DNA of 64,000 bases from Thermoplasmatota archaeon (GCA_028279595.1 JANQNK010000020.1:256001-320000), one strand, 5' to 3'; shown: positions 17,826 to 48,299, numbered from the stretch's first letter. The notes: generated by a model from the sequence alone, not told the origin. A program made the numbers and translations.

Positions 17826-20800
17826 CTATTGTTTCTCCTTCCTTTCGGGATCCTCTTTCTCCTGCTTCTCGACACCCTCTTCCCATTCGGGTGTGGGGGC
17901 ACCCTCGTCCCCGGGTCCTGCAGGGGTCTCGCCGGGATCATCGCCGTCCGCCTTCGAACCCTCCCATTCCGGCGTTGCCTCGGGATCGTCGGAATCGTCC
18001 TCTGCGGAAACCTCATCCTGTTCGTCGCCGTCGTCCTCCCATTCAGGGGAGTCGACCGACTTCGATTCGTCCCGCAGGCCGTCGAGGTCCTCCTTCCTCT
18101 CGGGTCCCGGCCTCGCTCCGGGGACGGCCTTTTCATCCTTGTCCGGAGCCCTCATCGATCCATAGCGCTCGACGTGTCCGGCGTCCTCGAAGTCCTTGAT
18201 GTCGGGTCCCTCGTCCGGTTTCCGCGGCACGCCCATGGGGAAGTCGGGGCCTACATCGTCGGGTTCGCTGCCCGGGATCGGCGGTAACGGCTTGAGGCCC
18301 TTTCCGTCGTCCTCGACCTCGTCTTCGCTGTCCCCGTCCTTGGTCTTTTCCCACGCATCGTCCTGCGATCCCTTCGGCAGCAGCGCGCCGCACTCGGGAC
18401 AGCGATGGGATACGTTGTCCTCGACCTCGGACCTGCAGCGCGGACAGGTGACCTTGTTCGCCCTTGCCCTGATCTTCTTGAAGGCGCTCTTGTGCCTGAT
18501 GTAGACCACTGCAAGGAATATCACGACGATCACGAGGACCGCTATCATCAGGAACGGAACGAGGGAGCTCTCGTCCTTCTCCCCCTGCAGCTCGAGGGGA
18601 GCGAAGATCGTCAGATGAGTGACGTTCGCCCAGACGAAGTCGTTCTCGATGTCGACGCCGGTAAGACCCGCGATACGCCAATCCTCGTCCTCGGCATCCC
18701 AGTAGAACATGCGCAGTTTCTTTGCGCTGACACCGGAGGGAAGGTCGCCGTAATGCACCTCTATACTGACCCACGAGACGTTCGCATCGGGATCGTCGAT
18801 CTCGATGGTGAAGTAGAGTCCTATGTCGGTCCTATCACCGCCTGACGGGTCTGCGGTGGGGCCTACGTCCAACTCACCCGGGCCCTGGATGGATGCCCAG
18901 ACCACAATGTATCCATCCGTGAACGAGCTGTTGATCATGAGGATGCGGTCCCGCGTCACGACCGTCGCTGTGAGCGGTAATAACTCACTCCCTTTGGACC
19001 CGTTGTTGATACCGTCAGTTGCCACGATCCAGTAGTTGACCCCGGGCGGGACCACGGCATAGCCAGGAATGACGGCAGAGTAGGTGCCTGACAAGTGGTC
19101 CCCAGAGGTCCGATCCATTTCGATGCCAGCGAAACTGAACGGGTATCTCGGGTCCTCGTAGCGAAGCTCGACATATTGAACGAACCGATCATCGCCCACT
19201 ACCGCCGAAATCGTCAACGGTTCGCCGTGCGTCCAGTTGACCTCGGGGACATGGCTGATCCACGGCGCATCGGTGTCGTCCGGAGTAAGGACGTCCACCT
19301 CGTACGGGTCGCCCACCGGGTCAGTGACCGAGTTGCGACCGTCCGAGGCGATCATGTAGTAGGAGAAGTCGTCGGAGACATCCGAAGCAGGGATCGTCGC
19401 TTTGAAGAGGATCCCTCCGTACATTGGCAGTGTCTTCCATGATGAGCCCTTCCCGTAATAGAGCGTGACATTGTCGATCCCGATGTCGTCATACACATAT
19501 ACCGTGATGTTCACATCCACACCGGCCTCCGCCGATGTCACTGGTTCGTGGACGATGGCTGGGGGATTCCTGTCGACGGCCGAGAGGTCGATTGTGAAGT
19601 TCCTCTTCTCGGACGGTACCTCGAACCTGCCATCGCCGATCTCCACCCACCATTGGTAGGTGATGTTCTCAGTGAGATTGTATATGAATGTTGCCGATGA
19701 GTTGTGCTGGTGGACCTGCCAGACCTCGGTGCCGTTGTGATAGAGGAGCAGGCGGTTGCTGTAGGCGTCTCCGTCGGGATCGTAGGACTGCCACGCGAAC
19801 AGGACGGTGGTCGAATTGATGACAGCGTCGTCGGGCGGTGTCAACAGATCCACGGTCGGCGGATGGGGAAGGTCGGAGTTGTTCAGGGTGACGAGGGTAC
19901 CGAGGCTGTATCCATCGACGGACTGGTCGCTTGGAAGGAACCATACGTACAGTGTGCCACTGAACTCGGGGACGTCGTTGAGCGAATCCCAGACGAAGGT
20001 GTAATTCACCCCGGTTGCGTCAACCGGTAGGTCGTCGGTGTCATTCAGGATGGTACAGGGTCCGTATGTACTGTTATCGATGTGCCAACCGACGTAGACC
20101 GAAACCGGGTCCCAGTTCGCGTCCGCAATGGTCACGTTGAACCAGACCAGTCCCATGTCGACGTTCTTGTCGATGAGCTCGATCGTCGGCTGTTGCGCCA
20201 GTAACATGAAGGATATCCTCAATACCGGACCGGGACCCACGGTTTGTTTGACCTGTTCGCTTGCCCTATCCTTGACCGAGACGTTGTAGGTCTGGTTGTG
20301 AGTACCAGTGATGTTGTGAACGACGCCGGGCATGATGATCCATGGGCTCTTGCCCTTCGTGTCCGTCCGGGCTCCAGTTCCGCCATATCCGGGGGATGCA
20401 TGCATTACGGTATCGGATATCGTGTTCAGGACCTCGATCTCGGCGTCGCCGACCGGATTGGATGCAAGGGTGTCGTCGGTCACCATGACCTGGAAGTACA
20501 TCATCTCAGTGATCCAGCTGTAGTCGTGAATTGTCGCCCAATCCCAGGTCGAGTTGTATGTAAGCAGGTAGGAGCCCGACAGGTCCAACCTACCAAAGGA
20601 AACGTTGAAACCGGTGCCCATTGAATCCCTCAACGCGAAGTAATCGTCAATGCTCGAGTGCTCGATCCAGAAGGTGGTGTCCATCAGTTCGATGTCCTCG
20701 ATGATAGAATCCGAGATATCGATGTCGCTCTCATGGGCCTGTAGCTCGCACCACGCCATACTCAGTGAGGCGCCTTCGATATCGATGCCTTCGGAACCCA

Positions 20801-23249
20801 CTATCAGGATGTTGATGTCGGTCGCGTTCATGATTGCGAGGTTCGAGCTGTTTATCAGTGCAAGGTATCCATGCTCGCTGGCATCGATGTCATCGGTAGC
20901 GTTCATGTAATATCCGATGGAGCCTCCGTTCACTGTCACCGTCTCGTTGAAGTCGAGGGTGGTCATGTCGATGCTCTCTCCGTCCATCCACAGGTTGCCG
21001 ATGTCCGAATCCCTCATGACCAGCGTACCGAAGCTAACCTTGAGGTCGTCGGAAAGCACAGAACCTGTTATCTCGAGGGTTGAATCTCCCAACCAGGCAT
21101 CCCCCTCCAGACCGGAGTCGATGACCACGACATGGCTCGAGAAGTAGACCTGGGCCGAGTTGAACCCTCCCGTCATGTTCGAATCCTCTATCGTCAGGTT
21201 CGAGAACACGACCATGAAGCCACTTGGAACATCGACGAAATTGCAGCCTTCGACCATCACGTCCGCGAATGTCAGGTTGTACTGGCTCCCCCCTCGGAAA
21301 CTTACATCATCGAAGTTAGCCGACCCGGTTATGTCGAACCCATCCGTGTTGCGTATCTCACCGCCCGTCCAATTGACGTGGCCGCCCACTGACAGGTCCG
21401 CGCCGATCAACGACGTATCCATGAACTCGGCCGTCCCCGTGATATCGAGATCGCCCTCGATATCGATCATGTACAGCGATGCCGATCCCGGAATCGACAC
21501 CGAGTCGAACACTCCGATTGTCGAATTGCTCACGGATGAAACGGAATCGATCACCATCCGCTCGTTCTCGACCCATTCTACGTGGATGCCGTCCTCCATC
21601 AGCTCGAGGAGTTCGATCCGTGTGTTGATGGACCCGTTGAGGGTCAGGGCTTTCGATATGGTGCCCCCGTCATAGGTCCCGTTGAGAACGTGTATGGTAT
21701 CTCCTTCGGCCGCGTTGTCGTGCCCCTTCATCACGGTGTCGTAGGGGTGATCCATCGAACCGTTCATGCTCCCGTTCGCGTCGTCGTCGACGTAGATGTC
21801 CATCGCGTACGGTCTTGTGAACGTCTCCTGGCGGCTCAACTGCATGTTCAGGTCCCTCATCTCCGACCAAGGTCCGAGGGTCATGCCTGCGTCGATGTCG
21901 TGGAGCGTCATTCCCCCCATGCTCCGCGTCATGTACTTGACGATGACACCTCCGATGATACCTGTCGACCGCGTCTTGTCGTCGGTCCCGTTGTAGACCT
22001 CGGTGGAATATATCTTGGAACCATCCTCGATAACGACACCGTCGACCCCCTCGATGGGTCCTTCCGAGTTCTTCGCATAGAGCCAGAGGTAATTGTACAT
22101 CGTGAACGTCGATGTCGAGTCCACCGAGTGATTGTTATGTGTGAGATTGTAGGAGTTAACCTCCGACGAGTCGATGAGCTCCATGTCCATCTCGGTGACA
22201 TCAATGGTGGAGTTCGTTATGTTGCCCCATGAGGCTTCGTAGCCGATCCCGTCCTCCGATTCGTTCAGGCCGATATCGTAGATGTCGGAGCTCGAGTTCC
22301 GGAAGTAGATCGACGCGAAGGTTCCGTCGCACCTGTAGAAGGTCGTGTCCATAATGGTCAATGTCGCCATGTAGGTCTCCATGTGTCTCTGTACCGAGTC
22401 AACGAGCGAGCTGTTCACGATATCGACGGTACCCTCGGAGACGGTGATCCCGTCGGTGGCCCCTTCTATCGTGACGTTGTCAATGGTCACGTCAAAGCCT
22501 TCCGTGATCGGTATCCCGTCGGTGCAGTCCTGTATCAACGAGTCCTCTATGGTGACGTTGATGTTGTCCTTCAGCATGATGCCGTTGGAGGCCGAGTAGA
22601 TCTGTGCCCTCCTGACGATCGTGTCGTTGGTCTCCTTTGCGAGGTCGATCCCGTAGGTGCTCCCCGTGACCATCACGTCCTCGATGGTGACATCCTCGGA
22701 CTCGTAGATGTACATACTGAACAGGGACACACCGAGGACGCTCGAGTTCCTAACTGTCACGTTGGTAGAGCCTTTCACGGAAACGCCGCGCACACCGTTC
22801 GTGATGTCGATCTTGTTCATCAGCGCGGTCTCGGCACCGGTGATGTCGATCGCAGTCTGGGTTATCGTGGGGAACTCCAGGTCCCTGAGCCTGATGTCGG
22901 GGGCCGTGCAAAGGATGCCGAAATCGCCGTCCTGGACCGATATGTGGCTGATGGTCGCGTTGGCGCTGACGTCGAACACGGTCCCGACAACCTCGACCGC
23001 GGTCTCGGTGGTTCCGTTCCCGTAGATCGTGACCGATTTGTTGACGATCACATTCTCATGGTAGTTCCCGGCGAACACGTAGATCCAATCGCCATCGGTC
23101 GCGTTGTCGATAGCGCCCTGGATGTTGTCGTAGTCCGCCTTCGCCCAATCGTCGTCGACGATTATGACGTCGCCGCTGCCGACAGCGGCTACGGCTAAAA
23201 GCATGCTCGATAGGCACAGGAGTGCTAGAAATCCCCTCAACATGTGCAT
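17826..23249 (-). CDS. Large cell-surface protein: right-handed beta-helix (NosD/pectin-lyase-like) regions, Ig/FN3-like domains, single TM, cytoplasmic zinc ribbon and acidic tail
   Basis: Signal peptide; IIVDDD..YDNIQGAIDNA..G.Y.ENVIV and IYVDDD..G..DHPY.TV beta-helix caps; D..PP.I.H repeats; TM LVPFLMIAVLVIVVIFLAVVY; CPRC/CPECG. Confidence 0.85.
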   Translation of the reverse strand: MHMLRGFLALLCLSSMLLAVAAVGSGDVIIVDDDWAKADYDNIQGAIDNATDGDWIYVFAGNYHENVIVNKSVTIYGNGTTETAVEVVGTVFDVSANATISHISVQDGDFGILCTAPDIRLRDLEFPTITQTAIDITGAETALMNKIDITNGVRGVSVKGSTNVTVRNSSVLGVSLFSMYIYESEDVTIEDVMVTGSTYGIDLAKETNDTIVRRAQIYSASNGIMLKDNINVTIEDSLIQDCTDGIPITEGFDVTIDNVTIEGATDGITVSEGTVDIVNSSLVDSVQRHMETYMATLTIMDTTFYRCDGTFASIYFRNSSSDIYDIGLNESEDGIGYEASWGNITNSTIDVTEMDMELIDSSEVNSYNLTHNNHSVDSTSTFTMYNYLWLYAKNSEGPIEGVDGVVIEDGSKIYSTEVYNGTDDKTRSTGIIGGVIVKYMTRSMGGMTLHDIDAGMTLGPWSEMRDLNMQLSRQETFTRPYAMDIYVDDDANGSMNGSMDHPYDTVMKGHDNAAEGDTIHVLNGTYDGGTISKALTLNGSINTRIELLELMEDGIHVEWVENERMVIDSVSSVSNSTIGVFDSVSIPGSASLYMIDIEGDLDITGTAEFMDTSLIGADLSVGGHVNWTGGEIRNTDGFDITGSANFDDVSFRGGSQYNLTFADVMVEGCNFVDVPSGFMVVFSNLTIEDSNMTGGFNSAQVYFSSHVVVIDSGLEGDAWLGDSTLEITGSVLSDDLKVSFGTLVMRDSDIGNLWMDGESIDMTTLDFNETVTVNGGSIGYYMNATDDIDASEHGYLALINSSNLAIMNATDINILIVGSEGIDIEGASLSMAWCELQAHESDIDISDSIIEDIELMDTTFWIEHSSIDDYFALRDSMGTGFNVSFGRLDLSGSYLLTYNSTWDWATIHDYSWITEMMYFQVMVTDDTLASNPVGDAEIEVLNTISDTVMHASPGYGGTGARTDTKGKSPWIIMPGVVHNITGTHNQTYNVSVKDRASEQVKQTVGPGPVLRISFMLLAQQPTIELIDKNVDMGLVWFNVTIADANWDPVSVYVGWHIDNSTYGPCTILNDTDDLPVDATGVNYTFVWDSLNDVPEFSGTLYVWFLPSDQSVDGYSLGTLVTLNNSDLPHPPTVDLLTPPDDAVINSTTVLFAWQSYDPDGDAYSNRLLLYHNGTEVWQVHQHNSSATFIYNLTENITYQWWVEIGDGRFEVPSEKRNFTIDLSAVDRNPPAIVHEPVTSAEAGVDVNITVYVYDDIGIDNVTLYYGKGSSWKTLPMYGGILFKATIPASDVSDDFSYYMIASDGRNSVTDPVGDPYEVDVLTPDDTDAPWISHVPEVNWTHGEPLTISAVVGDDRFVQYVELRYEDPRYPFSFAGIEMDRTSGDHLSGTYSAVIPGYAVVPPGVNYWIVATDGINNGSKGSELLPLTATVVTRDRILMINSSFTDGYIVVWASIQGPGELDVGPTADPSGGDRTDIGLYFTIEIDDPDANVSWVSIEVHYGDLPSGVSAKKLRMFYWDAEDEDWRIAGLTGVDIENDFVWANVTHLTIFAPLELQGEKDESSLVPFLMIAVLVIVVIFLAVVYIRHKSAFKKIRARANKVTCPRCRSEVEDNVSHRCPECGALLPKGSQDDAWEKTKDGDSEDEVEDDGKGLKPLPPIPGSEPDDVGPDFPMGVPRKPDEGPDIKDFEDAGHVERYGSMRAPDKDEKAVPGARPGPERKEDLDGLRDESKSVDSPEWEDDGDEQDEVSAEDDSDDPEATPEWEGSKADGDDPGETPAGPGDEGAPTPEWEEGVEKQEKEDPERKEKQ

Positions 23250-25144: not shown

Positions 25145-26305
25145 TCACTCGAACGACCGCCGGATGCTCTCGATCGCCGCATCGATGTTCTCCAGACTCG
25201 TAGCGTAAGAGAACCTCAGATATCCTTCACCGTAGGGTCCGAAGGATGTCCCCGGAAGGACCGCGACACCTGCGTTGTTGAGGAGATGGTCTGCCACCTC
25301 CTGCGAGGTCATGCCCGTGCCCTTGATGTTCGGGAACGCGTAGTATGCTCCCTTGGGGGCGAGGCAGCTGAATCCGGGTATGGAGTTCAATCCTTCCACC
25401 ACGCGGTCCCTCTTCTCCTTGTACCTCACCATCATCTCAGAGATGAACGCCTGATCTCCGGTGAGGGCCTCGACACCGGCCCACTGGGTGAACGTTGCTG
25501 TACACGACACGGCACTCACGAGGAAGTCCTGCAGTCGTGCCGCCAACGGTTTCGGGACTACCATGTAACCGAGGCGCCAGCCTGTCATCGCATAGTATTT
25601 CGAGAATCCGTCCAGGAGGACCGTCCGCTCGGCGCAGCCGTCCCTCGCCGTGGGCGAGAAGTGGTCGTCCTCGTATGTCATCTTCGAGTAGATCTCGTCG
25701 GACATCACCCAGACATCCCTTTCCTCGGCTATCTCCGCGATCTCGTCCATCTCCTTCCTGGTCATCACCGACCCGGTCGGGTTCTGGGGTGAGTTGACTA
25801 CGATCAGTTTCGTCTTCTCCGTAATACGTTCCTCGATGTCCGCCGGGTTCATCCTGAACTCGTTCTCCTCAAGCAACGGGATGCAGACCCCCTTGGCGCC
25901 GATGAACGAGACAATGGAACCGTATGCCGGATATCCCGGGTCCTGGTAGATGACCTCGTCCCCGGGGTCCACGATCCCTAGCATTCCGAAGAAGATGCCG
26001 GGTTTCAGTCCCGGAATTATGACGATCTGCTCGACGTCCGGCCTGTATCCGCGGGTCCTCTCGACCTCGTCCTGGAGTGCTTGCCTGAGTTCCAGGACTC
26101 CGACGGAAGGGACGTAGTGGGTCTTCTTCTTCTGGATCGCCCTGATGCCTGCCTGGGCTATGTTATCGGGTGTCTCGATGTCCGGCTCTCCGATCTCGAA
26201 GTGGAGTATCTCCCTGCCCTGTCGTTCCAGGGCCTGGGCCTTCGCCAGCACCTCGAACGCCGCTTCTCCGTAGATCCTTCCCGCTCCGTCGCTGAGCTCT
26301 ACCAT
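25145..26305 (-). CDS. PLP-dependent aminotransferase class I/II (aspartate aminotransferase-like)
   Basis: IGEPD, NSPQNPTG, SDEIY, GFSKYYAMTGWRLG, GEGYLRFSYA. Confidence 0.95.
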   Translation of the reverse strand: MVELSDGAGRIYGEAAFEVLAKAQALERQGREILHFEIGEPDIETPDNIAQAGIRAIQKKKTHYVPSVGVLELRQALQDEVERTRGYRPDVEQIVIIPGLKPGIFFGMLGIVDPGDEVIYQDPGYPAYGSIVSFIGAKGVCIPLLEENEFRMNPADIEERITEKTKLIVVNSPQNPTGSVMTRKEMDEIAEIAEERDVWVMSDEIYSKMTYEDDHFSPTARDGCAERTVLLDGFSKYYAMTGWRLGYMVVPKPLAARLQDFLVSAVSCTATFTQWAGVEALTGDQAFISEMMVRYKEKRDRVVEGLNSIPGFSCLAPKGAYYAFPNIKGTGMTSQEVADHLLNNAGVAVLPGTSFGPYGEGYLRFSYATSLENIDAAIESIRRSFE

Positions 26306-26306
26306 C

Positions 26307-28127
26307 TCAATGACCTCCTGCGTATCCGGAGAGGCCGAGTTCCGCCAGCCTCCCTTCCGTGGGAACGCCGGTGGCGTCCCAACCTCTCAATGAATAGTAA
26401 TCCTGAAGGCACTTCTCGTACCCCTCCCGGTCGAGCGTAACACCCTTCGCCTCGCCCTCCGTGAAGGGATCGTTGAACATCCTCGGAGGGAGAGAGTCAT
26501 CCGGGTTCATGCCTTCCCGAAGATTGAAGAGCCGGACGAGATTCCAGATCCTCTCGCCGGCCATGAGATAGCTCTCGACGGTGTGGTCGAAACCCGTGGC
26601 CTTGTTCCACATATCGACGCAGTCCTCCTCCGATACTGGCGCGAAATCGCAGAGTACCAGGGAGAAGAATGCAGCCCTCTCGTCCTGCATGCCCTTGACG
26701 AGTTCAGGCTTCCTTTCGAACGAGAATCTGTCATAGTCCGGGTCACCGATCTCCGTAGTGACGGTCCAGGCCCTCTCGTGGCAGCCGCCCCTGTCGGATG
26801 TGCCGTATGCCAGTCCCATGCCGAACGCTCCCCGTGGATCGTATCCCGGGATCTCAAGTCCGTTGGCGTGCACTGCGAACGCTTCGGAACCTTGACCTAG
26901 GATCTCGGCAGCTCCCCGAACACCCTCGGCGAGCACGTCCCCAGCCCGGTTACTCCTGTGAGCGATATCGTCGGCAAGCTGTGCCAGTGACGGCGGATCG
27001 CCCCACGATATCGAGTTCCCGCCGAGGTCCTCGTCGGAAAGGACCCCCTTCATGTATGCCTCGACGGCGAACCCAAGCACACCACCGAGGGAGATGGTGT
27101 CCATCCCGAGCTCGTTGCACCTTTCGTTGAGGTAGGCCACGTCCTCCATTGTACCGACCCCGAGGTTGGAACCCATGAGGGCGATCGTCTCGTACTCAGG
27201 ACCCACAAGGGTCGTCCCCTCGAATGGTCCCGACTTCACCGATGACCTGTTCCAGCAGGCTATCATGCAGTTGTAGCAGGCTCCTCCCTTGTCGACGATC
27301 CTCTCCTGCATCTGCTCGGCAGTTATCGCCTCGCCGTCCTCGAACCACCCTTCCTGGTAGTTCCTGGTCGGGAGCAGGCCCCAGTCGTTGACGGGTTTGA
27401 CCCAGTACGGTGTTCCGAACTTCGTACGGTTGGGCAGGAACGGATGCTCCCTGAATATCTTCAGGACCCTCGCCGTCGCCTCCTTGAACCCATCGGGGTC
27501 GTGGAGCGGTACGGTCCCGGTACCGACGATCGACACCGCCTTGAGGTTCTTGGAACCCATGACAGCACCCGAACCCCCCCGGCCCGCGTGCCTGTGGCCG
27601 TCCACGGTTATCGCCGCCAACTTCACCAGGTTCTCCCCGGCGGGGCCTATGACGGCCGTCCTGACGCGTCCGTTCGCCTGTAAGGCCTCGTGTGTCTCAA
27701 GGCATTCCATCCCCCAGAGGTCTGACGCGTCCTCGAACTCGATAGAATCATCCGATATACAGATCTGGACTGGTGATTCCGACCTGCCTGTTATGATGAT
27801 GACGTCCCAGCCCGCCTTCTTCATCTCGGCCGCAAAGGTACCGCCGAAGTGGGAGTCGAGGAAGAGCCCGGTCTGGGGAGATTTCGTTACCACCGTCCCC
27901 CTTCCCGACGTTTGCGCCCCCGTTCCTGTGAGCGGACCGCTCGTGAACATCAGGAGATTCTCGGGAGAGAGAGGATCGGTTCCCGCAGGAAGCCTGTCGA
28001 ATAGCAGTTTCGCTCCGAGCCCCTTGGCTCCTATGAAATCCCTTGCATCGTCAAGGTCCGTCTCCTCGATCGAGGTCGTCTTCGATCCCAGATCGATGTG
28101 CAGCATCCTACCTGTGTAGCCACCCAT
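26307..28127 (-). CDS. Aldehyde:ferredoxin oxidoreductase family protein (W-pterin)
   Basis: KSPQTG, IGPAGEN, AGRGGSGAVMGSKNLKAV, CYNCMIAC, GPEYET, LGMDTIS, PGYDPR, RGGCH. Confidence 0.96.
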   Translation of the reverse strand: MGGYTGRMLHIDLGSKTTSIEETDLDDARDFIGAKGLGAKLLFDRLPAGTDPLSPENLLMFTSGPLTGTGAQTSGRGTVVTKSPQTGLFLDSHFGGTFAAEMKKAGWDVIIITGRSESPVQICISDDSIEFEDASDLWGMECLETHEALQANGRVRTAVIGPAGENLVKLAAITVDGHRHAGRGGSGAVMGSKNLKAVSIVGTGTVPLHDPDGFKEATARVLKIFREHPFLPNRTKFGTPYWVKPVNDWGLLPTRNYQEGWFEDGEAITAEQMQERIVDKGGACYNCMIACWNRSSVKSGPFEGTTLVGPEYETIALMGSNLGVGTMEDVAYLNERCNELGMDTISLGGVLGFAVEAYMKGVLSDEDLGGNSISWGDPPSLAQLADDIAHRSNRAGDVLAEGVRGAAEILGQGSEAFAVHANGLEIPGYDPRGAFGMGLAYGTSDRGGCHERAWTVTTEIGDPDYDRFSFERKPELVKGMQDERAAFFSLVLCDFAPVSEEDCVDMWNKATGFDHTVESYLMAGERIWNLVRLFNLREGMNPDDSLPPRMFNDPFTEGEAKGVTLDREGYEKCLQDYYSLRGWDATGVPTEGRLAELGLSGYAGGH

Positions 28128-28174
28128 TTGATCACGTCCGTGATTGGGACGATTATGTCCCCTGAGCGTGAGGT

Positions 28175-29194
28175 TCAGTCCATGTTCAGGAGGTCGATGA
28201 GCAGTGCGAAACCGGTTTCCCGCTTCCCGGCACCCGGTCCGACTATCGTGACCGGTCCGAGCTCGTCGGTCTCGAAGGTCAGGGCGTTGGTTGCCTCGCC
28301 GACGCCGGCCAGCGGATCGCTGAGCGGCAGCCTCATGGGCTTGACGCTCGCCGAGAATGTTCCGTCCTCCTCGATCTCAGCACATCCGATGAGCTTCCAG
28401 CGCTCCCCGGAGGCCTTCGCCGAAGCTATATCCTCCATGGAAATTCCCGTAATGCCCTCGCGCTCGACGTCCTCGATCGAAATGCGCTTGCCGAGCACGA
28501 CGTTCGAGAGGATGACGACCTTTCCGAGGGCGTCCCAGCCCTCAACGTCTCCCGTGGGATCGGCCTCGGCATAGCCAAGCTCCTGGGCCTTTGCGAGGGC
28601 GTCCTCGTACGACATCCCCTCCTCCATCCGGGTGAGGATGTAGTTCGTCGTTCCATTCATTATCCCCTTGAACCCTGTGATATTGTTGCCCGCGAGCGTG
28701 TACCTCGCAAGGTTCAAGACGGGCGTACCTGCCAGGACGACACCCTCGAATCCGTACTGGACGTCGTTCTGGATCGCCAGTTCCGTCAATTCTGCGACGT
28801 GCTTGACCGTCGGCCCCTTGTTGGTGGACACGACGTTCATGCCGGCATTCAACGCTGCCTTGACGTGCGTGGTCGCGGGCTCTCCGGTCTTGACGTCCGT
28901 GTAGGTGACCTCGATTATCGTGTCGGCATTGGTCTCGGTTATCGTCGCGAGGCTGTCCATCCCCTTGATGCCCGTCGGATAGTTGCCGAGGTCCTCACCG
29001 GACGATGCCATCTCGAGGAGCTTGGTCATGTCCAGGCCTTCCTCGTCGTAGACAGCGCCCTTGATCATGTCCGAGACGGCCACCACTTCGTATGTCAGGC
29101 CGAGGTTCTCGAGCATCTCGGCCTTTTCCAGGAGTATCTCGCAGAGTCCGACGGCCACTGTGCCGAATCCGATGAACGCCAGCCTGTGATGCAA
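28175..29194 (-). CDS. hom: Homoserine dehydrogenase (short form, no ACT domain)
   Basis: IGFGTVA, VVSTNKGP, GIMNGTTNYIL, AQELGYAEADPTGDVEGWDA, GPGAGKRET. Confidence 0.95.
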   Translation of the reverse strand: MHHRLAFIGFGTVAVGLCEILLEKAEMLENLGLTYEVVAVSDMIKGAVYDEEGLDMTKLLEMASSGEDLGNYPTGIKGMDSLATITETNADTIIEVTYTDVKTGEPATTHVKAALNAGMNVVSTNKGPTVKHVAELTELAIQNDVQYGFEGVVLAGTPVLNLARYTLAGNNITGFKGIMNGTTNYILTRMEEGMSYEDALAKAQELGYAEADPTGDVEGWDALGKVVILSNVVLGKRISIEDVEREGITGISMEDIASAKASGERWKLIGCAEIEEDGTFSASVKPMRLPLSDPLAGVGEATNALTFETDELGPVTIVGPGAGKRETGFALLIDLLNMD

Positions 29195-29195
29195 T

Positions 29196-30470
29196 TCAGT
29201 CCCCCCTGTGGTGCAGTTCGGGAGCGGCGATGAAGGTCAGACCGTTCTCCGTCAGCGCCCTGGCGGTGTTGTTGAGGGCGTTGTGCTTCTCGAGGTAGTT
29301 GCGGGTCAGGTGCGGCATGACGCCCTGCGCTTCCGCGTCCGACCTGTCCATGAAGTAGTCGAGGATGTCGCTCGGGTGTTCGAGGGTCTCTTCGACCGCC
29401 GTCTCCCCGCCCTCGTGCTTCGCGCTGATGTTCTTGACCGTGGATGCGATCTCGAGGAGCTCGTCCCGCCTGTCGTAGGGCTGAATAACGATGCTCTTGT
29501 ATGTCTCGAGGATGTGGTGCTCGAACCTGACGTTCTCCTCGAGGCCGAGGTTGCCACGGATCTGGTCGCTGATCTCGATGGTGGTATTGTCCACGGAGTT
29601 GGAGAAGTTGAAACCGATGAGCGACGTCGTCCCGTCCGGTCGCGAGAACAGCCGCGCCATCATCAGGGTCCAGAAGACCGCGTAGGGATTGTCGTTCCCC
29701 ATGAACACGGATATCTTGAACTGGATGTCGATGCCGAGCTTGTGGAGCAGATAACCGACGAAGATCGTGCCTGGATTGATGTTCAGCACTTCCTTCACTC
29801 CGTAGTTCGTGTAGTAGTAGAGGAACTCGTCCGCCCAGAGGACGGGATGGTCGTTCGGCTGTCCGACGCCTCCGAAGTAGCCAGTTATCGTCGCCGGTCC
29901 ACCGAGATGGACGTTGCTGCCGTCAGTGCCCTTCGTGTCCAGGGTCTCGCACCAACTCGCTCCGATGATCTGCATGGCGGCGGACATGGCAAGGATGTCA
30001 TCGTCCTCCTCCTGCTCCTTCATCTTTCGGACACGGATGAACCGCCCCGGCATGAGCTCACCGTTTTCAATGGCCTGCCTGGCCGACTCCATGAAGAATG
30101 AGAAGTACTGGCATGCCGAGACCTCGAGGGTGACGGCGAAGTCCTCGTTGAACATCATCTCGTCCGCGCCGTCTCCGAGGACCTTCCTGCGATACTCATC
30201 CACACCGATGAAGGCGCCGGAATCCCGCTGCTCGATCAACCAGTTCAGGTCATCGATGTAGGGCGAGCCCTTGGCCTCGAGTCGCGCCATCAGGTTCTCC
30301 ACCTTTCCGGCATCCCGAGCCTTCCGGTTTATCTCCTCGGGTCCGCCGTACTTCTCGACCACGGCCAGGAAATCGTTCACAAGCCTGTTGTCTGGGTCGA
30401 GCAGGAACGCATTGATCTCGTCGAGTCTCATGTCCTCTATCGCCAGTTTACCACGTATGTCATCTGACAT
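29196..30470 (-). CDS. Hypothetical soluble enzyme-like protein (possible TIM barrel), first gene of the hom-AOR-aminotransferase operon
   Basis: 424 aa; GGGAGG SD; stop 1 bp from the hom start; motif-rich (ETLDTKGTDGSNVHLGG, FKISVFMGNDN, RFEHHI, SAKHEGG); family not recognised. Confidence 0.8.
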   Translation of the reverse strand: MSDDIRGKLAIEDMRLDEINAFLLDPDNRLVNDFLAVVEKYGGPEEINRKARDAGKVENLMARLEAKGSPYIDDLNWLIEQRDSGAFIGVDEYRRKVLGDGADEMMFNEDFAVTLEVSACQYFSFFMESARQAIENGELMPGRFIRVRKMKEQEEDDDILAMSAAMQIIGASWCETLDTKGTDGSNVHLGGPATITGYFGGVGQPNDHPVLWADEFLYYYTNYGVKEVLNINPGTIFVGYLLHKLGIDIQFKISVFMGNDNPYAVFWTLMMARLFSRPDGTTSLIGFNFSNSVDNTTIEISDQIRGNLGLEENVRFEHHILETYKSIVIQPYDRRDELLEIASTVKNISAKHEGGETAVEETLEHPSDILDYFMDRSDAEAQGVMPHLTRNYLEKHNALNNTARALTENGLTFIAAPELHHRGD

Positions 30471-30599
30471 GCAATATGCCTCCCAATGATACCTCCGACG
30501 CTCGCTTGAGGGATAGTTCCGAACGCCCCATCGAAGTATCGCTCCACCCTAGTCTTTGGGGGATATTAATTTTTCGTTATGCTGTCAACAGTTTGGTCA

Positions 30600-31589
30600 T
30601 CAAAAGGTCGACGATAGTCGTTTGGGAGCCCGGTCTACGCCCTTGGAGAACAGGTAGCCCGCGATGAGAGGCAATCCAATCGACATATCTACGAACGCCA
30701 TCGATCTCTTCGCCCTCCTGTCCACCTTGCCCCAAGACTGTGCTTCCCTGAGCGTCGAACCGGACAGTCCTCCCCATTCCGGTCTGTCCATGGTGAGCTG
30801 TACCGCGTACTCATGTCCTGGAACGTCGCCGTATATCATGTCCGCCATCACGACGGCGTCGTTGATGTAATTCTTCGGAACACCGCCGCCGATGTAGATC
30901 GCGCCGGTCCCGTCGGCGTCGTTGACGAGCTTGGCCATCTCCATGTTGTCCTGGATCGTGTCGATGGTCGGTCCCTTGCCCGTACGGCTCCTGACGACGG
31001 CAAGTCCGATCCCGATAGAGCTGTCGGCGATCGCGGGGCAGTATACCGGCACGTCGAGGTCCTTCGCGGTGCAGAGGATCGAATCCTCGTCCTCGACCAT
31101 GTCAGAGAGGTGATCCATGAAAAGACGGGTGCCCATGGTCCCCTCCTGCTCCGCGAACTTCCTTCCGATGAGGATGTCAAGGGTCCGGAACGCGTACTCA
31201 TCGACGTAGGTGTCGTATATCCTGTCTATGTAATTGTCATGGAGCTCGGCGTCGGGAGCTTCCACGTCCCCTTTGTAGTGCTTGTAACCGGCAGCCTGGT
31301 AGAGGTCCTGGTAGAGTATCGCTCCTGTCGATACGACCACGTCGATCATGCTCCTCTTCATGAGGTCGGCGACGACCTTTCGAAGACCTCCCGCGATCAT
31401 CGCTCCCGAGAGGCCCAGGAATACTGTGACGTCATCGTTGAGCATGTCCTCCCAGATCCTAGCCACATCGGCAAGGGCCCTTCCCTGGAACGACGTCGAG
31501 CCCAGGGACTCGACGAGTTCCTCGATGGACGATACCATCTCGAGGTCGATATGCTCGATCTCCTCCCGGAGGAGGTCCTCCCTCTTCAT
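30600..31589 (-). CDS. Deoxyhypusine synthase family protein
   Basis: LSGAMIAGG, DRIYD, CPAIADSSIG, IGGGVPKN, GGLSGSTLREAQSWGK. Confidence 0.93.
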   Translation of the reverse strand: MKREDLLREEIEHIDLEMVSSIEELVESLGSTSFQGRALADVARIWEDMLNDDVTVFLGLSGAMIAGGLRKVVADLMKRSMIDVVVSTGAILYQDLYQAAGYKHYKGDVEAPDAELHDNYIDRIYDTYVDEYAFRTLDILIGRKFAEQEGTMGTRLFMDHLSDMVEDEDSILCTAKDLDVPVYCPAIADSSIGIGLAVVRSRTGKGPTIDTIQDNMEMAKLVNDADGTGAIYIGGGVPKNYINDAVVMADMIYGDVPGHEYAVQLTMDRPEWGGLSGSTLREAQSWGKVDRRAKRSMAFVDMSIGLPLIAGYLFSKGVDRAPKRLSSTF

Positions 31590-31598
31590 GACGTCACC

Positions 31599-32153
31599 TC
31601 ACTCGATGATAAGTACGGCTGCGGCTACAACGGTGGTCCACTTGCCACTGGAGCCGCTCTTCGCTGCGACCGCGATGTGCTGGGTATTGACTATCCGGCC
31701 GTCGATCTTGAAGATGTCCCTGACCTCGTCGTAACCCGCGTCGAGGTCGTACTCGATCCCCAGCGTGGATGCGAGCATCTCCGCGGCGAGGTCCTCAGCG
31801 TACTCGCCGATCTTCTCCTCGGACATGCCGAACTCGTGGTGCTCGCTGATGTAACCGTGCTTGGTCCTGTCCTGGGGTATGGCGCAGCCGATGGCTGCCG
31901 AAACGAGGCGCCCATCCTCCTTCGATCCGTTCTGCGAAAGCACTGTGTGGAGGATCTGGCCGGCTTTGAGCATCCCAACGCCCTCGTCCATGGATATGAT
32001 CTCGCACTCCGGCGGCATGATGGACGAGACCTCTACAAGATTGTACCTGGCGATCCTCGCGTCCCTGAGCGCGAGCTCGAAGCTGGCGAGCTTCTCGCGG
32101 TGGATGCCGACGCCCCTCGTGAAGAATACCTTGCTAGGCACTAGACCGGTCAT
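31599..32153 (-). CDS. pdaD: Pyruvoyl-dependent arginine decarboxylase
   Basis: SFELALRDARIARYNLVEVSSIMPP (Ser-Ser pyruvoyl site); GYISEHH; WTTVVAAAV. Confidence 0.95.
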   Translation of the reverse strand: MTGLVPSKVFFTRGVGIHREKLASFELALRDARIARYNLVEVSSIMPPECEIISMDEGVGMLKAGQILHTVLSQNGSKEDGRLVSAAIGCAIPQDRTKHGYISEHHEFGMSEEKIGEYAEDLAAEMLASTLGIEYDLDAGYDEVRDIFKIDGRIVNTQHIAVAAKSGSSGKWTTVVAAAVLIIE

Positions 32154-45767: not shown

Positions 45768-46331
45768 ATGAACACGATAAGAACACTATACATCACCAGC
45801 AGGAAGGACTGGCGAAAATGGCTGGAGGAGCATTTCGAAAAAGAGAAGGAGATCTGGTTGGTGTACCCGAAGAAGGCGTCCGGTAAAGAAAGGATACCGT
45901 ACAACGATGCCGTGGAAGAAGCATTGTGCTTTGGCTGGATCGACAGCACGGTCAGATCCCTTGATGAGGACAATAGCATCCAACGTTTTACTCCAAGGAA
46001 CCCCGGAAGCACATATTCCCAGCAGAACAAGGAAAGGATGAAATGGCTCTTGGAACACAACATGATCCATTCCTCAGTTTTGGAAAAGGCGAACCAGATC
46101 GCCTCGGAGAAGTTCATTTTTCCAGAAGATATCATTGAAGCTATCAAGGAAGACGAAACGGCCTGGGCAAATTACAACAATTTTTCAGACACATATAGAA
46201 GAATTAGGATAGCTTATATTGACGCTGCACGCAAACGCCCTGACGAATTCAATAAGCGACTTAACAATTTCATCGTCAAAACCAAAAAGAATAAACAAAT
46301 AGGATTCGGTGGGATCGAGAATTATTATTGA
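45768..46331 (+). CDS. YdeI/OmpD-associated family protein
   Basis: WRKWLEEH, YNDAVEEALCFGWIDS, RFTPR, YIDAARKRP. Confidence 0.92.
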   Translation: MNTIRTLYITSRKDWRKWLEEHFEKEKEIWLVYPKKASGKERIPYNDAVEEALCFGWIDSTVRSLDEDNSIQRFTPRNPGSTYSQQNKERMKWLLEHNMIHSSVLEKANQIASEKFIFPEDIIEAIKEDETAWANYNNFSDTYRRIRIAYIDAARKRPDEFNKRLNNFIVKTKKNKQIGFGGIENYY

Positions 46332-46435
46332 GTGATCTGGACGATGGAATCCACCCCGCACCACCAAACCGTTCACCATGAACGCTGGGATGAGGGAGAG
46401 GATCGAGGGTATCGTTGAATCGTAGTATGAGAGAA

Positions 46436-47050
46436 TCACTTACGCCTTAGATTGTGTTTGTCGAGTATTTCGATTACCTGCTGATAGTAATCCATAATAG
46501 TATCGATATTTGAAGTATCGATGGAGTATTCTTTTTCTCCGAAAGTGTACTTACCATTAACTATATTTCCGAAGTTTCCGAGATATCTCTTTGGTTCCTT
46601 CTGCTTAACGTCCTTAATCGATATTGTTCTTTCTTCGATATGTTCTAAGTGACAGCGAATTTCGTTATAATTTTTAAAGTATTCATCATATTGAATCTTG
46701 ACTTTAAGAAGTTCTTCGAATCCAGTAGCTTTGTAAATGGCCACTAGTAAAGTAGGAAGACGATTCATTAAGATGAAATAAAACTGACAGTCAGCAAACA
46801 TTTTGTCCTGAATTTCACGCCTTAAATTCACATCCAATTTATAGAAATCGGCATCATGCTCAAGAGCAGTACGATCTTCCTCGATACGTTTTATTTGTAT
46901 TATTGCCCATCGGCAATTTGTTTCGAACAATTGTATTAGGATACCTGCCCTGTAACTGGTAATTGACCCCCAATAATCGAATGATTTGCTCATTTTAAGA
47001 TCATATGGATTATCATTGCCATCTGAAGGTAGCTTTCTCGGTTCGACCAT
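46436..47050 (-). CDS. Hypothetical helical protein with HEPN-like RxxxxH motif
   Basis: EIRCHLEHIEE; AT-rich; GGAGG SD. Confidence 0.6.
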   Translation of the reverse strand: MVEPRKLPSDGNDNPYDLKMSKSFDYWGSITSYRAGILIQLFETNCRWAIIQIKRIEEDRTALEHDADFYKLDVNLRREIQDKMFADCQFYFILMNRLPTLLVAIYKATGFEELLKVKIQYDEYFKNYNEIRCHLEHIEERTISIKDVKQKEPKRYLGNFGNIVNGKYTFGEKEYSIDTSNIDTIMDYYQQVIEILDKHNLRRK

Positions 47051-47221
47051 TTAATCCCCATCCTCCATATCGAATCTAGTAGCTTATTATTTATGGTCCC
47101 TATGACCCCTTTGACCATGCCCTACGTTATGACGTCATAAATTTATGTCCTCTTATGGTGTCTGGCTTGCTATCATAGGGATGGTCTAGGGCATGAGGAC
47201 ATAAGCGAATGGTGTTATGAA

Positions 47222-47701
47222 CTATAATTTAAACTCCTGTCGATTTCGCTCTTCGAGAATTCTAAAAGCTAGCCGTTTATCGACAGGAATACGATTTATT
47301 GCATTCCCATATGGTGTGTGTTTCTTCTGATTGAATAGAATCAGACGATCATTTGGATATCCTCGGATTGTCTCTAACCTATCGACATTTGACCATGGAA
47401 CAGTAGCTTCATGGTCTATGTAAGTAATATGCAATCCATCGATAGCAAATCCAACTCTCTCAGGTATTCTTTTAATGTTGTATCGCATAAGAAAAAAGAA
47501 ATGTAATCCGCCAAATATTGCTACGGAGAATCCTATCAAGGGGTCCTGAACGAGATCAGATCCGTAATAACCATGAACGATACCTAATAAAGCTATCGGG
47601 ATTGCGATTGCGAATGGTCCGTATACTAACAATTTTCGATAAATGTTCCGGTATTCCTCCGAGAGTTTATTATCTCGCCATCGTATTTCCATAGACTTCA
47701 A
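47222..47701 (-). CDS. 2-TM + PH-like domain hypothetical protein (paralog A)
   Basis: Two TMs then RVGFAIDGLHITY...VPWSNV; similar to 47811..48299. Confidence 0.65.
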   Translation of the reverse strand: MKSMEIRWRDNKLSEEYRNIYRKLLVYGPFAIAIPIALLGIVHGYYGSDLVQDPLIGFSVAIFGGLHFFFLMRYNIKRIPERVGFAIDGLHITYIDHEATVPWSNVDRLETIRGYPNDRLILFNQKKHTPYGNAINRIPVDKRLAFRILEERNRQEFKL

Positions 47702-47810
47702 TTATTTATGTAATCTCAAGTTAATATTTAGAATCTTAGGTTTGGTATCCCCCACCTACGTCGCCGTGGAAGGGTATAAGTAGAGTCAGAGGGAATCGAG
47801 AGACGGGATC

Positions 47811-48299
47811 ATGAAGTGGATGGATAATGATGTCAATAGTCAATACATCTTAAGGAGGAAACGATGGAGAATATTATTTCCCGCTTCCATTTTATTCATT
47901 ATGATGATTACAGCGTTGGTCTTTTACTTGTTGGATCCGAATAGAGATATTCGGATATTTATTCCAGCAGTCTTAGTAGGTATATGGGGTGCATCGATTC
48001 AATATTATATTCAAAATTATAATGTTAATCGGATAGTAAAGAGAATTGGATTATCGAAGGAATCAATTACTCTTGACTATCATCGTAAAGAAAGATTAAT
48101 CCTACCTTTTAAGAACATAGTGAAAGTTGACACTTTGGACAACTGGAAAGATGTTTATTTTATTCAATGTAGACATCCAACCCCATCATTGTTTAAGAAG
48201 GTGTTCAATCAAGGAATGGAATACGTAGTCGTCACCAACAACATTGCATATCAAATCCAGAAGGTCTTAGCTGTAAATGGTATTTCTTCGAATGATTGA
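47811..48299 (+). CDS. 2-TM + PH-like domain hypothetical protein (paralog B)
   Basis: Two TMs then RIGLSKESITLDY...LPFKNI. Confidence 0.65.
   Translation: MKWMDNDVNSQYILRRKRWRILFPASILFIMMITALVFYLLDPNRDIRIFIPAVLVGIWGASIQYYIQNYNVNRIVKRIGLSKESITLDYHRKERLILPFKNIVKVDTLDNWKDVYFIQCRHPTPSLFKKVFNQGMEYVVVTNNIAYQIQKVLAVNGISSND

Follow-up and report, generated by a model that had tools for sequence, protein, structure and literature searches.

In the degradation of canavanine by Pseudomonas canavaninivorans and members of the Rhizobiales, a pyridoxal phosphate (PLP)-dependent gamma-lyase yields homoserine, which is then converted to fumarate by homoserine dehydrogenase, an aldehyde dehydrogenase (ALDH) and aspartase, all of these steps having been reconstituted in vitro (PMC9533460). 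A homoserine catabolic cluster is also cited, for Rhizobium, in PMC10228743. The synthetic 'homoserine cycle' approaches the same metabolite from another side, using an aldolase to form 4-hydroxy-2-oxobutanoate (HOB) from pyruvate and a one-carbon (C1) unit, and an HOB aminotransferase to interconvert HOB and homoserine (reviewed in PMC8879981).

Here we describe a four-gene operon found in a 64,000 nt stretch of DNA (JANQNK010000020.1:256001-320000, hereafter the window) from the metagenome-assembled genome of a Thermoplasmatota archaeon (GCA_028279595.1, here G000), which comprises 2.29 Mb in 21 contigs and is 86% complete. An earlier note, made from the sequence of the window alone, had proposed that these genes encode an undescribed oxidative homoserine pathway headed by an unfamiliar protein, here called X, which is followed by homoserine dehydrogenase (Hom), a tungsten-type aldehyde:ferredoxin oxidoreductase (AOR) and an aminotransferase (AT). 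The module is real and conserved. It probably represents a catabolic form of a pathway type already described, and the enzyme family at its head is new and very widespread. The reading that we tentatively prefer, with a probability of about 0.45, is that the operon functions as a catabolic funnel from a four-carbon (C4) hydroxy acid to aspartate and oxaloacetate, with X as the entry enzyme.

Structure and conservation of the operon

The four open reading frames (ORFs) lie on the minus strand in the order X, hom, AOR, AT (Table 1), and the gene order and gaps of the earlier note were verified at each junction: X and hom are separated by a single nucleotide (TGA-A-TTG), hom and AOR by 47 nt, and AOR and AT again by one (TGA-G-ATG). 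A GGAGG ribosome-binding site is found 8 nt ahead of the ATG of X, and the leader also includes a TATA-like A/T-rich box, GAAAAATTAATAT, at approximately 30575-30563, which may be an archaeal promoter.

Table 1. Positions of the operon genes and their leader within the window
Feature	Position	Strand	Characteristics
X	29196..30470	-	424 aa; 6-helix N-terminal domain (~1-105) and (beta/alpha)8 barrel (~113-415); unannotated family
hom, short archaeal type	28175..29194	-	339 aa; PF00742 and NCBIfam PRK06270
AOR, tungsten-type, broad-specificity subgroup	26307..28127	-	606 aa; AFOR_N and AFOR_C
AT, class I (subgroup Ib/I-gamma, AspAT-like), PLP	25145..26305	-	386 aa; PF00155
Intergenic leader	30471..30599	-	129 nt; A/T-rich box and GGAGG, read from sequence

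Hom matches PF00742 at 3.4e-60 and lies above the equivalog cut-off of PRK06270 (404.9 bits against 373). In length it matches the short archaeal type and, as the earlier note had stated, no ACT domain was detected in it with Pfam or NCBIfam. The protein aligns end to end with its best solved relative, from Archaeoglobus (3do5), and retains the catalytic Asp/Lys block AEADPTGDVEGWDALGK. Its N-terminus, FIGFGTVAVG, is that of a GxGxxG nucleotide fold, and the second beta strand ends in VVAVSD, the aspartate of which suggests a preference for NAD. This is the sole hom match in the host genome. The AOR contains both PF02730 (at 2.1e-76) and PF01314 (at 5.4e-127), scoring 451-461 bits against 1aor and 9mqx but 344 bits against the formaldehyde enzyme 1b25, and has the 4Fe-4S ligands CYNCMIAC (CxxCxxxC) at residues 284-291 as well as Cys493. 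The AT matches PF00155 at 1.6e-66 and has the PLP-lysine motif GFSKYYAMTGWR; the nearest solved structures are those of Pyrococcus horikoshii (1dju/1gd9) and the Thermus aspartate aminotransferase (AspAT). No NCBIfam equivalog model reaches its cut-off with this protein, the archaeal AspAT model asp_aminotase_Arch scoring 317 bits against a required 550.

Gene neighbourhoods were counted in two samples of 80 loci each, picked by similarity, the related genomes among which are not independent. X is adjacent to hom in around 27 Thermoplasmatota-type loci, and AOR is linked to the pair in 24-26 of them, a recurrence which argues that the arrangement is not due to chance. In the 80 species-representative loci, hom directly follows X in around 24 of Thermoplasmatota type, mostly with AOR and AT after it, and X-hom-AOR-AT is also carried by the closed chromosome CP070798.1. 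Several variants are found. Four loci (L032, L040, L042 and L043) have an ALDH at exactly the position of the AOR, giving X-hom-ALDH-AT, and in four others (L039, L046, L076 and L089) the AT lies on the opposite side of X. The ALDH of L042, the only one checked, is of the ordinary non-phosphorylating type; a ProA-like reductase was rejected, the best match being to a lactaldehyde dehydrogenase-like model at 540 bits. This substitution supports aldehyde oxidation only in general at the third step of the operon, at which the AOR would be expected to act on aspartate semialdehyde. The order X-AOR-hom is found in a member of the Caldiserica (L077). Genes for malic enzyme, for an AsnC/Lrp regulator and for a 2-oxoacid:ferredoxin oxidoreductase of four subunits flank the related loci.

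Some of these features would also suit a looser cluster, in which the AOR and AT serve general amino-acid fermentation, from an amino acid through the 2-oxo acid and aldehyde to the acid, and X and Hom act outside the homoserine/aspartate series: the AOR falls in a broad-specificity subgroup, the nearest solved relative of the AT is the Pyrococcus aromatic aminotransferase, and 2-oxoacid oxidoreductase genes flank the operon. However, all four genes strictly occur together, with junctions of 1 nt, across families at only 40-70% protein identity, the ALDH replaces the AOR at exactly its position, and Hom exceeds the homoserine dehydrogenase equivalog cut-off with its catalytic motif intact, so that we consider such an association unlikely.

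The aspartate-family pathway and the direction of flux

The earlier note had pointed out that none of ask, asd, thrB and thrC adjoins the operon. These genes were found neither nearby nor, over cut-off, anywhere in the 86%-complete G000, which likewise has no match over cut-off for homocysteine synthesis of the HcyBio type. Up to seven operon genomes were examined per gene, asd being sought in all seven and ThrB in G000 alone. Five of them, drawn from 41 Thermoplasmatota, have adjacent X and hom genes (G000, G002, G005, G012 and G022, of which G005 is 99% complete), and a further two single-contig operon chromosomes were examined for asd and aspartokinase. Genes for Asd, aspartokinase, DapA and dehydroquinate synthase II are absent from the five, as is any thrC match over cut-off, G012 having one below threshold; asd and aspartokinase were also not found in the two single-contig chromosomes. 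The genome check that the earlier note had suggested thus gave neither ask nor asd in G000 or in six further operon genomes. Among relatives that have hom away from a contig edge and lack X, asd is present in 8/8 and thrC in 7/8.

The loss of Ask, Asd, ThrC and DapA from the operon genomes therefore indicates that Hom is uncoupled from biosynthesis, and in these archaea it has no known source of aspartate semialdehyde or sink for homoserine beyond the operon itself. Provision of aspartate semialdehyde by Hom for lysine or archaeal aromatic synthesis was rejected, there being no dapA and no dehydroquinate synthase II. Taken with the exchange of AOR for ALDH in four loci, the lack of a source or anabolic sink therefore favours oxidation of homoserine to aspartate, the direction put first in the earlier note, and disfavours the ferredoxin-driven, ATP-free reduction of aspartate that it had considered equally novel.

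Were the operon biosynthetic, the AT would make aspartate, AOR and ferredoxin would reduce its beta-carboxylate, replacing Ask and Asd without ATP, and Hom would pull the aldehyde to homoserine, which X would convert to threonine, homocysteine or some other essential product. A replacement route of this kind would explain why hom is kept in genomes without Ask, Asd and ThrC (and, for G000, ThrB), and the strong conservation of X would suit a core biosynthetic enzyme. The nearby 2-oxoacid:ferredoxin oxidoreductase genes could furnish reduced ferredoxin, and the reduction of acids by AOR and an alcohol dehydrogenase is known from engineered Pyrococcus and from acetogens. Yet a non-phosphorylating ALDH, as found in the replaced position of the locus checked, cannot reduce a free carboxylate, and acid reduction at around -580 mV is thermodynamically steep. 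In addition, the AsnC regulators, malic enzyme and PanB/FolD/FTHFS contexts described below look catabolic, and X-bearing bacteria retain the canonical pathways. We consequently regard a biosynthetic operon as improbable.

The X family and its partners

X had no match in Pfam, NCBIfam, PHROGs, PDB sequences (by single sequence or profile) or ESM-Atlas features, and no literature on the family was found. An AlphaFold model built from a 50-row alignment (pLDDT 92.1, pTM 0.91) places six helices at the N-terminus, ahead of a (beta/alpha)8 barrel, bearing out the TIM barrel that the earlier note had read from the sequence. Among the TIM-barrel families weighed were DAHP synthase, class II aldolases, ketose 3-epimerases, the B12-mutase large subunits GlmE/KamD, BKACE and type I dehydroquinase. 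Foldseek placed DAHP synthase first (E 2.7e-4, TM of around 0.3), and also returned ketose 3-epimerase and class II aldolase; in an exhaustive alignment with VIA-align, unrelated TIM barrels all scored much alike, at Z 10-12. Judged from the model, this confirms X as an uncharacterised TIM barrel with a resemblance only to generic ones. Hints of lysine 5,6-aminomutase and MTHFR in a first AF2 model (20-row alignment, pLDDT 72) failed to hold. Membership among the large subunits of B12 mutases was also rejected, there being no conserved B12-binding partner nearby and a match to 1cb7_B (Z 11.5) that was not above those to other TIM barrels, as was a distant PanB paralog (hhalign probability of 0.3%).

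The motifs singled out in the earlier note cover the invariant or near-invariant positions E116, S118, D178-N186, N230, N232, D260, N261, E317-H319 and K351-E353, whilst the full set of invariant polar residues comprises E116, S118, R143, R148, E215, N230, T235, K252, S254, D260, N261 and R334. Conservation is only around 90% at the histidines H188, H318, H319 and H352, and neither of the two cysteines is conserved. A site of lysine, carboxylate and arginine residues that binds an oxo acid or other acid would be as plausible as the metal site that had been proposed.

The family ranks among the larger enzyme families that are wholly without annotation: all 8000 candidates scored in a homolog search matched, giving at least 8000 homolog clusters, the best 120 of which are 76-88% identical to X, those with names being labelled hypothetical; on clustering at 50% identity, nearly all full-length homologs fall in one cluster, with a few outliers at 37-51%. 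A scan of species genomes found X in at least 594, including archaea of the Thermoplasmatota, Undinarchaeota and Methanobacteriota, and bacteria of the Chloroflexota (many), Bacillota, Synergistota, Desulfobacterota, Spirochaetota, Caldiserica, Thermotogota, Myxococcota and Bipolaricaulota. Identity to the archaeal X is 64-79% across 80 fetched archaeal and bacterial loci, and 56% for a copy on a Polaromonas plasmid. A 385-aa homolog, 49-51% identical, is encoded on a 41-kb contig labelled by VirSorter (L019:8001-9158, P0129), among small genes without assigned function and others for a clamp-loader-like AAA protein and ERCC4 and Vsr nucleases; a virus may carry it as an auxiliary metabolic gene. 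Apparently long forms in L160, L166 and L151 were dismissed as read-through or frameshift artefacts, L166 having a partial PanB in frame upstream.

Neighbours within 5 kb of X were clustered in 156 loci and annotated with Pfam and NCBIfam. The linkage of X to hom and AOR that the earlier note would have expected of its homologs holds in the approximately 27 Thermoplasmatota loci, but most homologs are linked to other genes. PanB lies beside X in 47 of the 156 loci, directly adjacent in 38, and a class I aminotransferase is nearby in 30; then follow AsnC/Lrp regulators (17/156), ELFV-type amino-acid dehydrogenases, often with CBS domains (12/156), PepT-like M20 hydrolases (10/156), FolD (9/156), ALDH (8/156), FTHFS (7/156) and a DHDPS-like aldolase fused to formaldehyde-activating enzyme (Fae; 6/156). 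The usual bacterial layout has FTHFS and FolD divergent from (AsnC) PanB X (AT, ELFV, ALDH or AOR). AOR is found close to the 3' side of X in two bacterial loci (L117 and L146), and X-ALDH pairs also occur in bacteria.

The X-linked PanB is a paralog distinct from the copies found in panB-panC and panB-panE pairs; one Chloroflexia genome, for example, carries both the X-linked gene and, at another site, panB-panC. 'Candidatus Formimonas warabiya' DCMF (G041, L177-L184) has eight PanB, one of them next to panE and one in an X-ELFV-PanB-MttB-MttB cluster, whilst the partners of the others include class I aminotransferases (3/8), an amino-acid permease, MttB, a Cys/Met PLP enzyme and a DHDPS-like protein. 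These contexts suggest that the paralogs in this organism act catabolically, passing a hydroxymethyl group to folate. A role for X as a substitute for PanE or PanC in pantothenate synthesis was rejected: ApbA/PanE homologs are kept by 5/5 X-bearing bacteria and PanC by 3/5, in at least two of the bacteria a housekeeping panB, distinct from the X-linked one, adjoins panC or panE, and none of the five operon Thermoplasmatota has an intact PanB, G022 having only a 40-residue fragment.

The DHDPS-Fae fusions (L045, L047, L057, L060, L086 and L132, from Anaerolineae and Undinarchaeota) lie directly by X, often as tandem duplicates; in the one copy scored, from L060, the DHDPS part narrowly exceeds the cut-off for dapA, at 211 bits against 206, and the Fae part that for Fae, at 118.6 against 118.05. 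In a further locus (L186:2979-5258), a DHDPS-like domain that is not DapA, with WCPLLT and YQLPQIT motifs, is fused to a full-length X to give a 759-aa protein (P0272), known from one 5.4-kb contig only and possibly an artefact of sequencing or gene calling. A protein of approximately 330 aa with no Pfam or NCBIfam match adjoins X, mostly divergently, in 11 loci (L064:4075-5064 and ten others from Chloroflexota and Thermotogae). The two most distant homologs of X adjoin genes for an IlvD/EDD-type dehydratase, Dak and PfkB, which would fit a sugar-acid origin for the substrate, as the AsnC, AT and ELFV contexts would fit an amino-acid one. On plasmid CP087967.1 of Polaromonas sp. P1-6 (L185, 101363-126631), a sigma-54 activator gene lies between an X-SDR pair and an operon whose products are a GlcD-like 2-hydroxyacid oxidase, DHDPS-like aldolase, TRAP transporter, Ldh_2, iron-dependent alcohol dehydrogenase (Fe-ADH) and SSADH-type ALDH. 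The GlcD-like gene seems to be split into two ORFs; this cultured aerobe would be a tractable host for genetics.

Judged by their annotation, all of these partners would make, break or modify a 2-oxo-, 2-amino- or 2-hydroxy-4-hydroxy acid. PanB and DHDPS-Fae would carry out hydroxymethyl transfer or aldol cleavage, the AT, ELFV dehydrogenase and GlcD-like oxidase would interconvert groups at C2, and the C4 alcohol would be oxidised by Hom and Fe-ADH and the C4 aldehyde by AOR and ALDH. The simplest common intermediate would be HOB, with its amino form, homoserine. The earlier note had X releasing homoserine; however, the PanB, DHDPS-like, amino-acid dehydrogenase and folate C1 contexts make HOB at least as likely a product. 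As the commonest units are two-gene PanB-X and DHDPS-like-X pairs, alongside the one fusion, with no AT between them, action of X on an oxo acid is at least as probable as action on homoserine itself. Speculatively, the substrate would be a 4-substituted 2-oxobutanoate, such as the methionine or homocysteine keto acid (by elimination at C4 and hydration), a tetronic sugar acid (by dehydration) or a lactone.

Diverse partners with only a 4-hydroxy-acid motif in common, such as PanB, DHDPS-like aldolases and Hom, are also what would be expected if X had an accessory or repair function towards 4-hydroxy acids, for instance as a hydrolase that reopens the gamma-lactones of 2-oxo-, 2-amino- and 2-hydroxy-4-hydroxybutanoates. 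The GlcD-like oxidase, Fe-ADH and SSADH of Polaromonas would agree with this, no cofactor-binding motif was recognised in X, and its invariant Arg, Lys, Glu and Asp would suit acid binding or hydrolysis. Against such a role, X heads the operon, 1 nt from hom, it accompanies a PanB paralog rather than the housekeeping panB, and it matches known lactonases no better than generic TIM barrels, so that we give the proposal little credence.

In the catabolic funnel that we prefer, X would deliver a four-carbon 4-hydroxy skeleton, either as HOB, which the AT would turn into homoserine, or as homoserine directly. Hom would oxidise homoserine to aspartate semialdehyde, from which the tungsten AOR would produce aspartate and reduced ferredoxin, and the AT would pass on the amino group of aspartate to leave oxaloacetate. 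The earlier note had assigned the AT to the aspartate/oxaloacetate pair; if X makes HOB, it would act also, or instead, on the HOB/homoserine pair. Aspartate could then donate its amino group to HOB, closing the amino-carrier loop, possibly in one coupled exchange. The malic enzyme and the 2-oxoacid:ferredoxin oxidoreductase encoded beside the operon in related loci would then channel oxaloacetate into fermentation, and these genes, including those for all four oxidoreductase subunits, along with the AsnC/Lrp regulators, speak for a catabolic setting.

Several observations weigh against this scheme. Most X homologs are encoded away from hom, so homoserine need not take part in the reaction of X at all, and with HOB as the product the genes would not follow the order of the pathway steps. 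The identity of 64-79% between this X and its bacterial and other archaeal homologs is unusual for a peripheral catabolic enzyme. The AOR is of a broad-specificity type and the AT falls below every equivalog cut-off, so either could serve general peptide fermentation. The X of the Caldiserica nests within the archaeal clade, so the module there was probably acquired by transfer and would not be independent evidence. Finally, no transporter or other specific upstream gene was found to be conserved with X.

A more far-reaching extension, which we consider unlikely, is that X represents a new enzyme class forming HOB or homoserine from an abundant precursor, such as the methionine or homocysteine keto acid (through beta-elimination and hydration), a tetronic acid or a betaine-type compound. 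The anaerobic pathway so defined would be widespread and as yet undescribed, and would have two exits. At one exit, PanB paralogs and DHDPS-Fae would run backwards, placing the hydroxymethyl carbon onto folate or methanopterin; at the other, in Thermoplasmatota, Hom, AOR and AT would oxidise the skeleton to oxaloacetate with reduction of ferredoxin.

The partners of X consistently point to 4-hydroxy-2-oxo and 2-amino C4 acids, for which no natural pathway has been assigned. Solving the reaction would explain the retention of hom in sediment Thermoplasmatota without the aspartate pathway, and would supply a physiological substrate for a tungsten AOR and a catabolic, C1-harvesting role for PanB paralogs.

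Upstream, on the same strand, the operon is abutted by a polyamine gene pair (window 30600-32153, -), in which a gene for a pyruvoyl arginine decarboxylase is followed by one for a deoxyhypusine-synthase-like protein, a linkage that is not kept in other genomes; the latter protein falls below all equivalog cut-offs, with models for 1,9-bis(guanidino)-5-aza-nonane synthase and homospermidine synthase nearly as close. On the 3' side lies a convergent PurP gene, just past which is an ORF of 1807 aa (window 17826-23249, -). The GC content is 0.39 at window 46001-48000, which contains small ORFs and may be foreign DNA, and 0.50-0.52 at 36-40 kb, against around 0.59 in the remainder of the window. 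No tRNA genes were found anywhere in the window.

Comparison with described pathways

The canonical aspartate pathway (Ask, Asd, Hom, ThrB and ThrC) has Hom, aspartate semialdehyde and homoserine in common with the operon, but Ask, Asd, ThrC and DapA are missing from the operon genomes and ThrB from G000, no ACT domain was detected in the Hom here, and the direction is probably reversed. Lower ectoine catabolism (DoeD, DoeC and the AsnC-type regulator DoeX) likewise combines an aminotransferase with aldehyde oxidation to take a C4 amino compound to aspartate under a Lrp/AsnC regulator, DoeC being an aspartate-semialdehyde dehydrogenase. However, DoeD is a class III diaminobutyrate transaminase, whereas the AT is class I and AspAT-like; the ectoine route has no Hom, homologs of DoeA and DoeB are not present here, and the PanB, DHDPS-Fae and folate context of X would be left unexplained.

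The hub chemistry of the homoserine cycle matches the X partners PanB, DHDPS-Fae, AT and ELFV dehydrogenase. That cycle is an engineered assimilation through promiscuous enzymes, with none resembling X, whilst the direction here is probably catabolic; if the reaction of X were solved, it might reveal a natural counterpart to this element of synthetic methylotrophy. No paper was found on a combination of Hom and AOR, or on a natural HOB pathway.

The closest parallel is the degradation of canavanine, in which an entry enzyme likewise gives homoserine, an NAD-type Hom forms aspartate semialdehyde, and oxidation of the aldehyde to aspartate leads into central metabolism. Its genes are clustered with a regulator, and the Rhizobiales locus contains a dapA-like gene, comparable to the DHDPS-like genes by X elsewhere; the clustering of hom with an aldehyde-oxidising enzyme is also shared, the partner here being AOR or, in the four variant loci, ALDH. 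The entry enzymes differ, a PLP fold-type I gamma-lyase in the canavanine route and an unrelated TIM barrel here, X having no match to Cys_Met_Meta_PP or any other PLP family in Pfam or NCBIfam. So too do the aldehyde step, which is ferredoxin-linked in the operon outside the ALDH variants, the exit, by transamination rather than aspartase, and the host, an anaerobic archaeon without aspartate-family biosynthesis. Since the oxidation of homoserine to aspartate had already been reconstituted in bacteria (PMC9533460), an oxidative homoserine pathway, presented as undescribed in the earlier note, is therefore not new as a kind; what is new is the archaeal, ferredoxin-linked AOR version, the transamination exit, its presence where the biosynthetic pathway has been lost and, above all, the entry enzyme.

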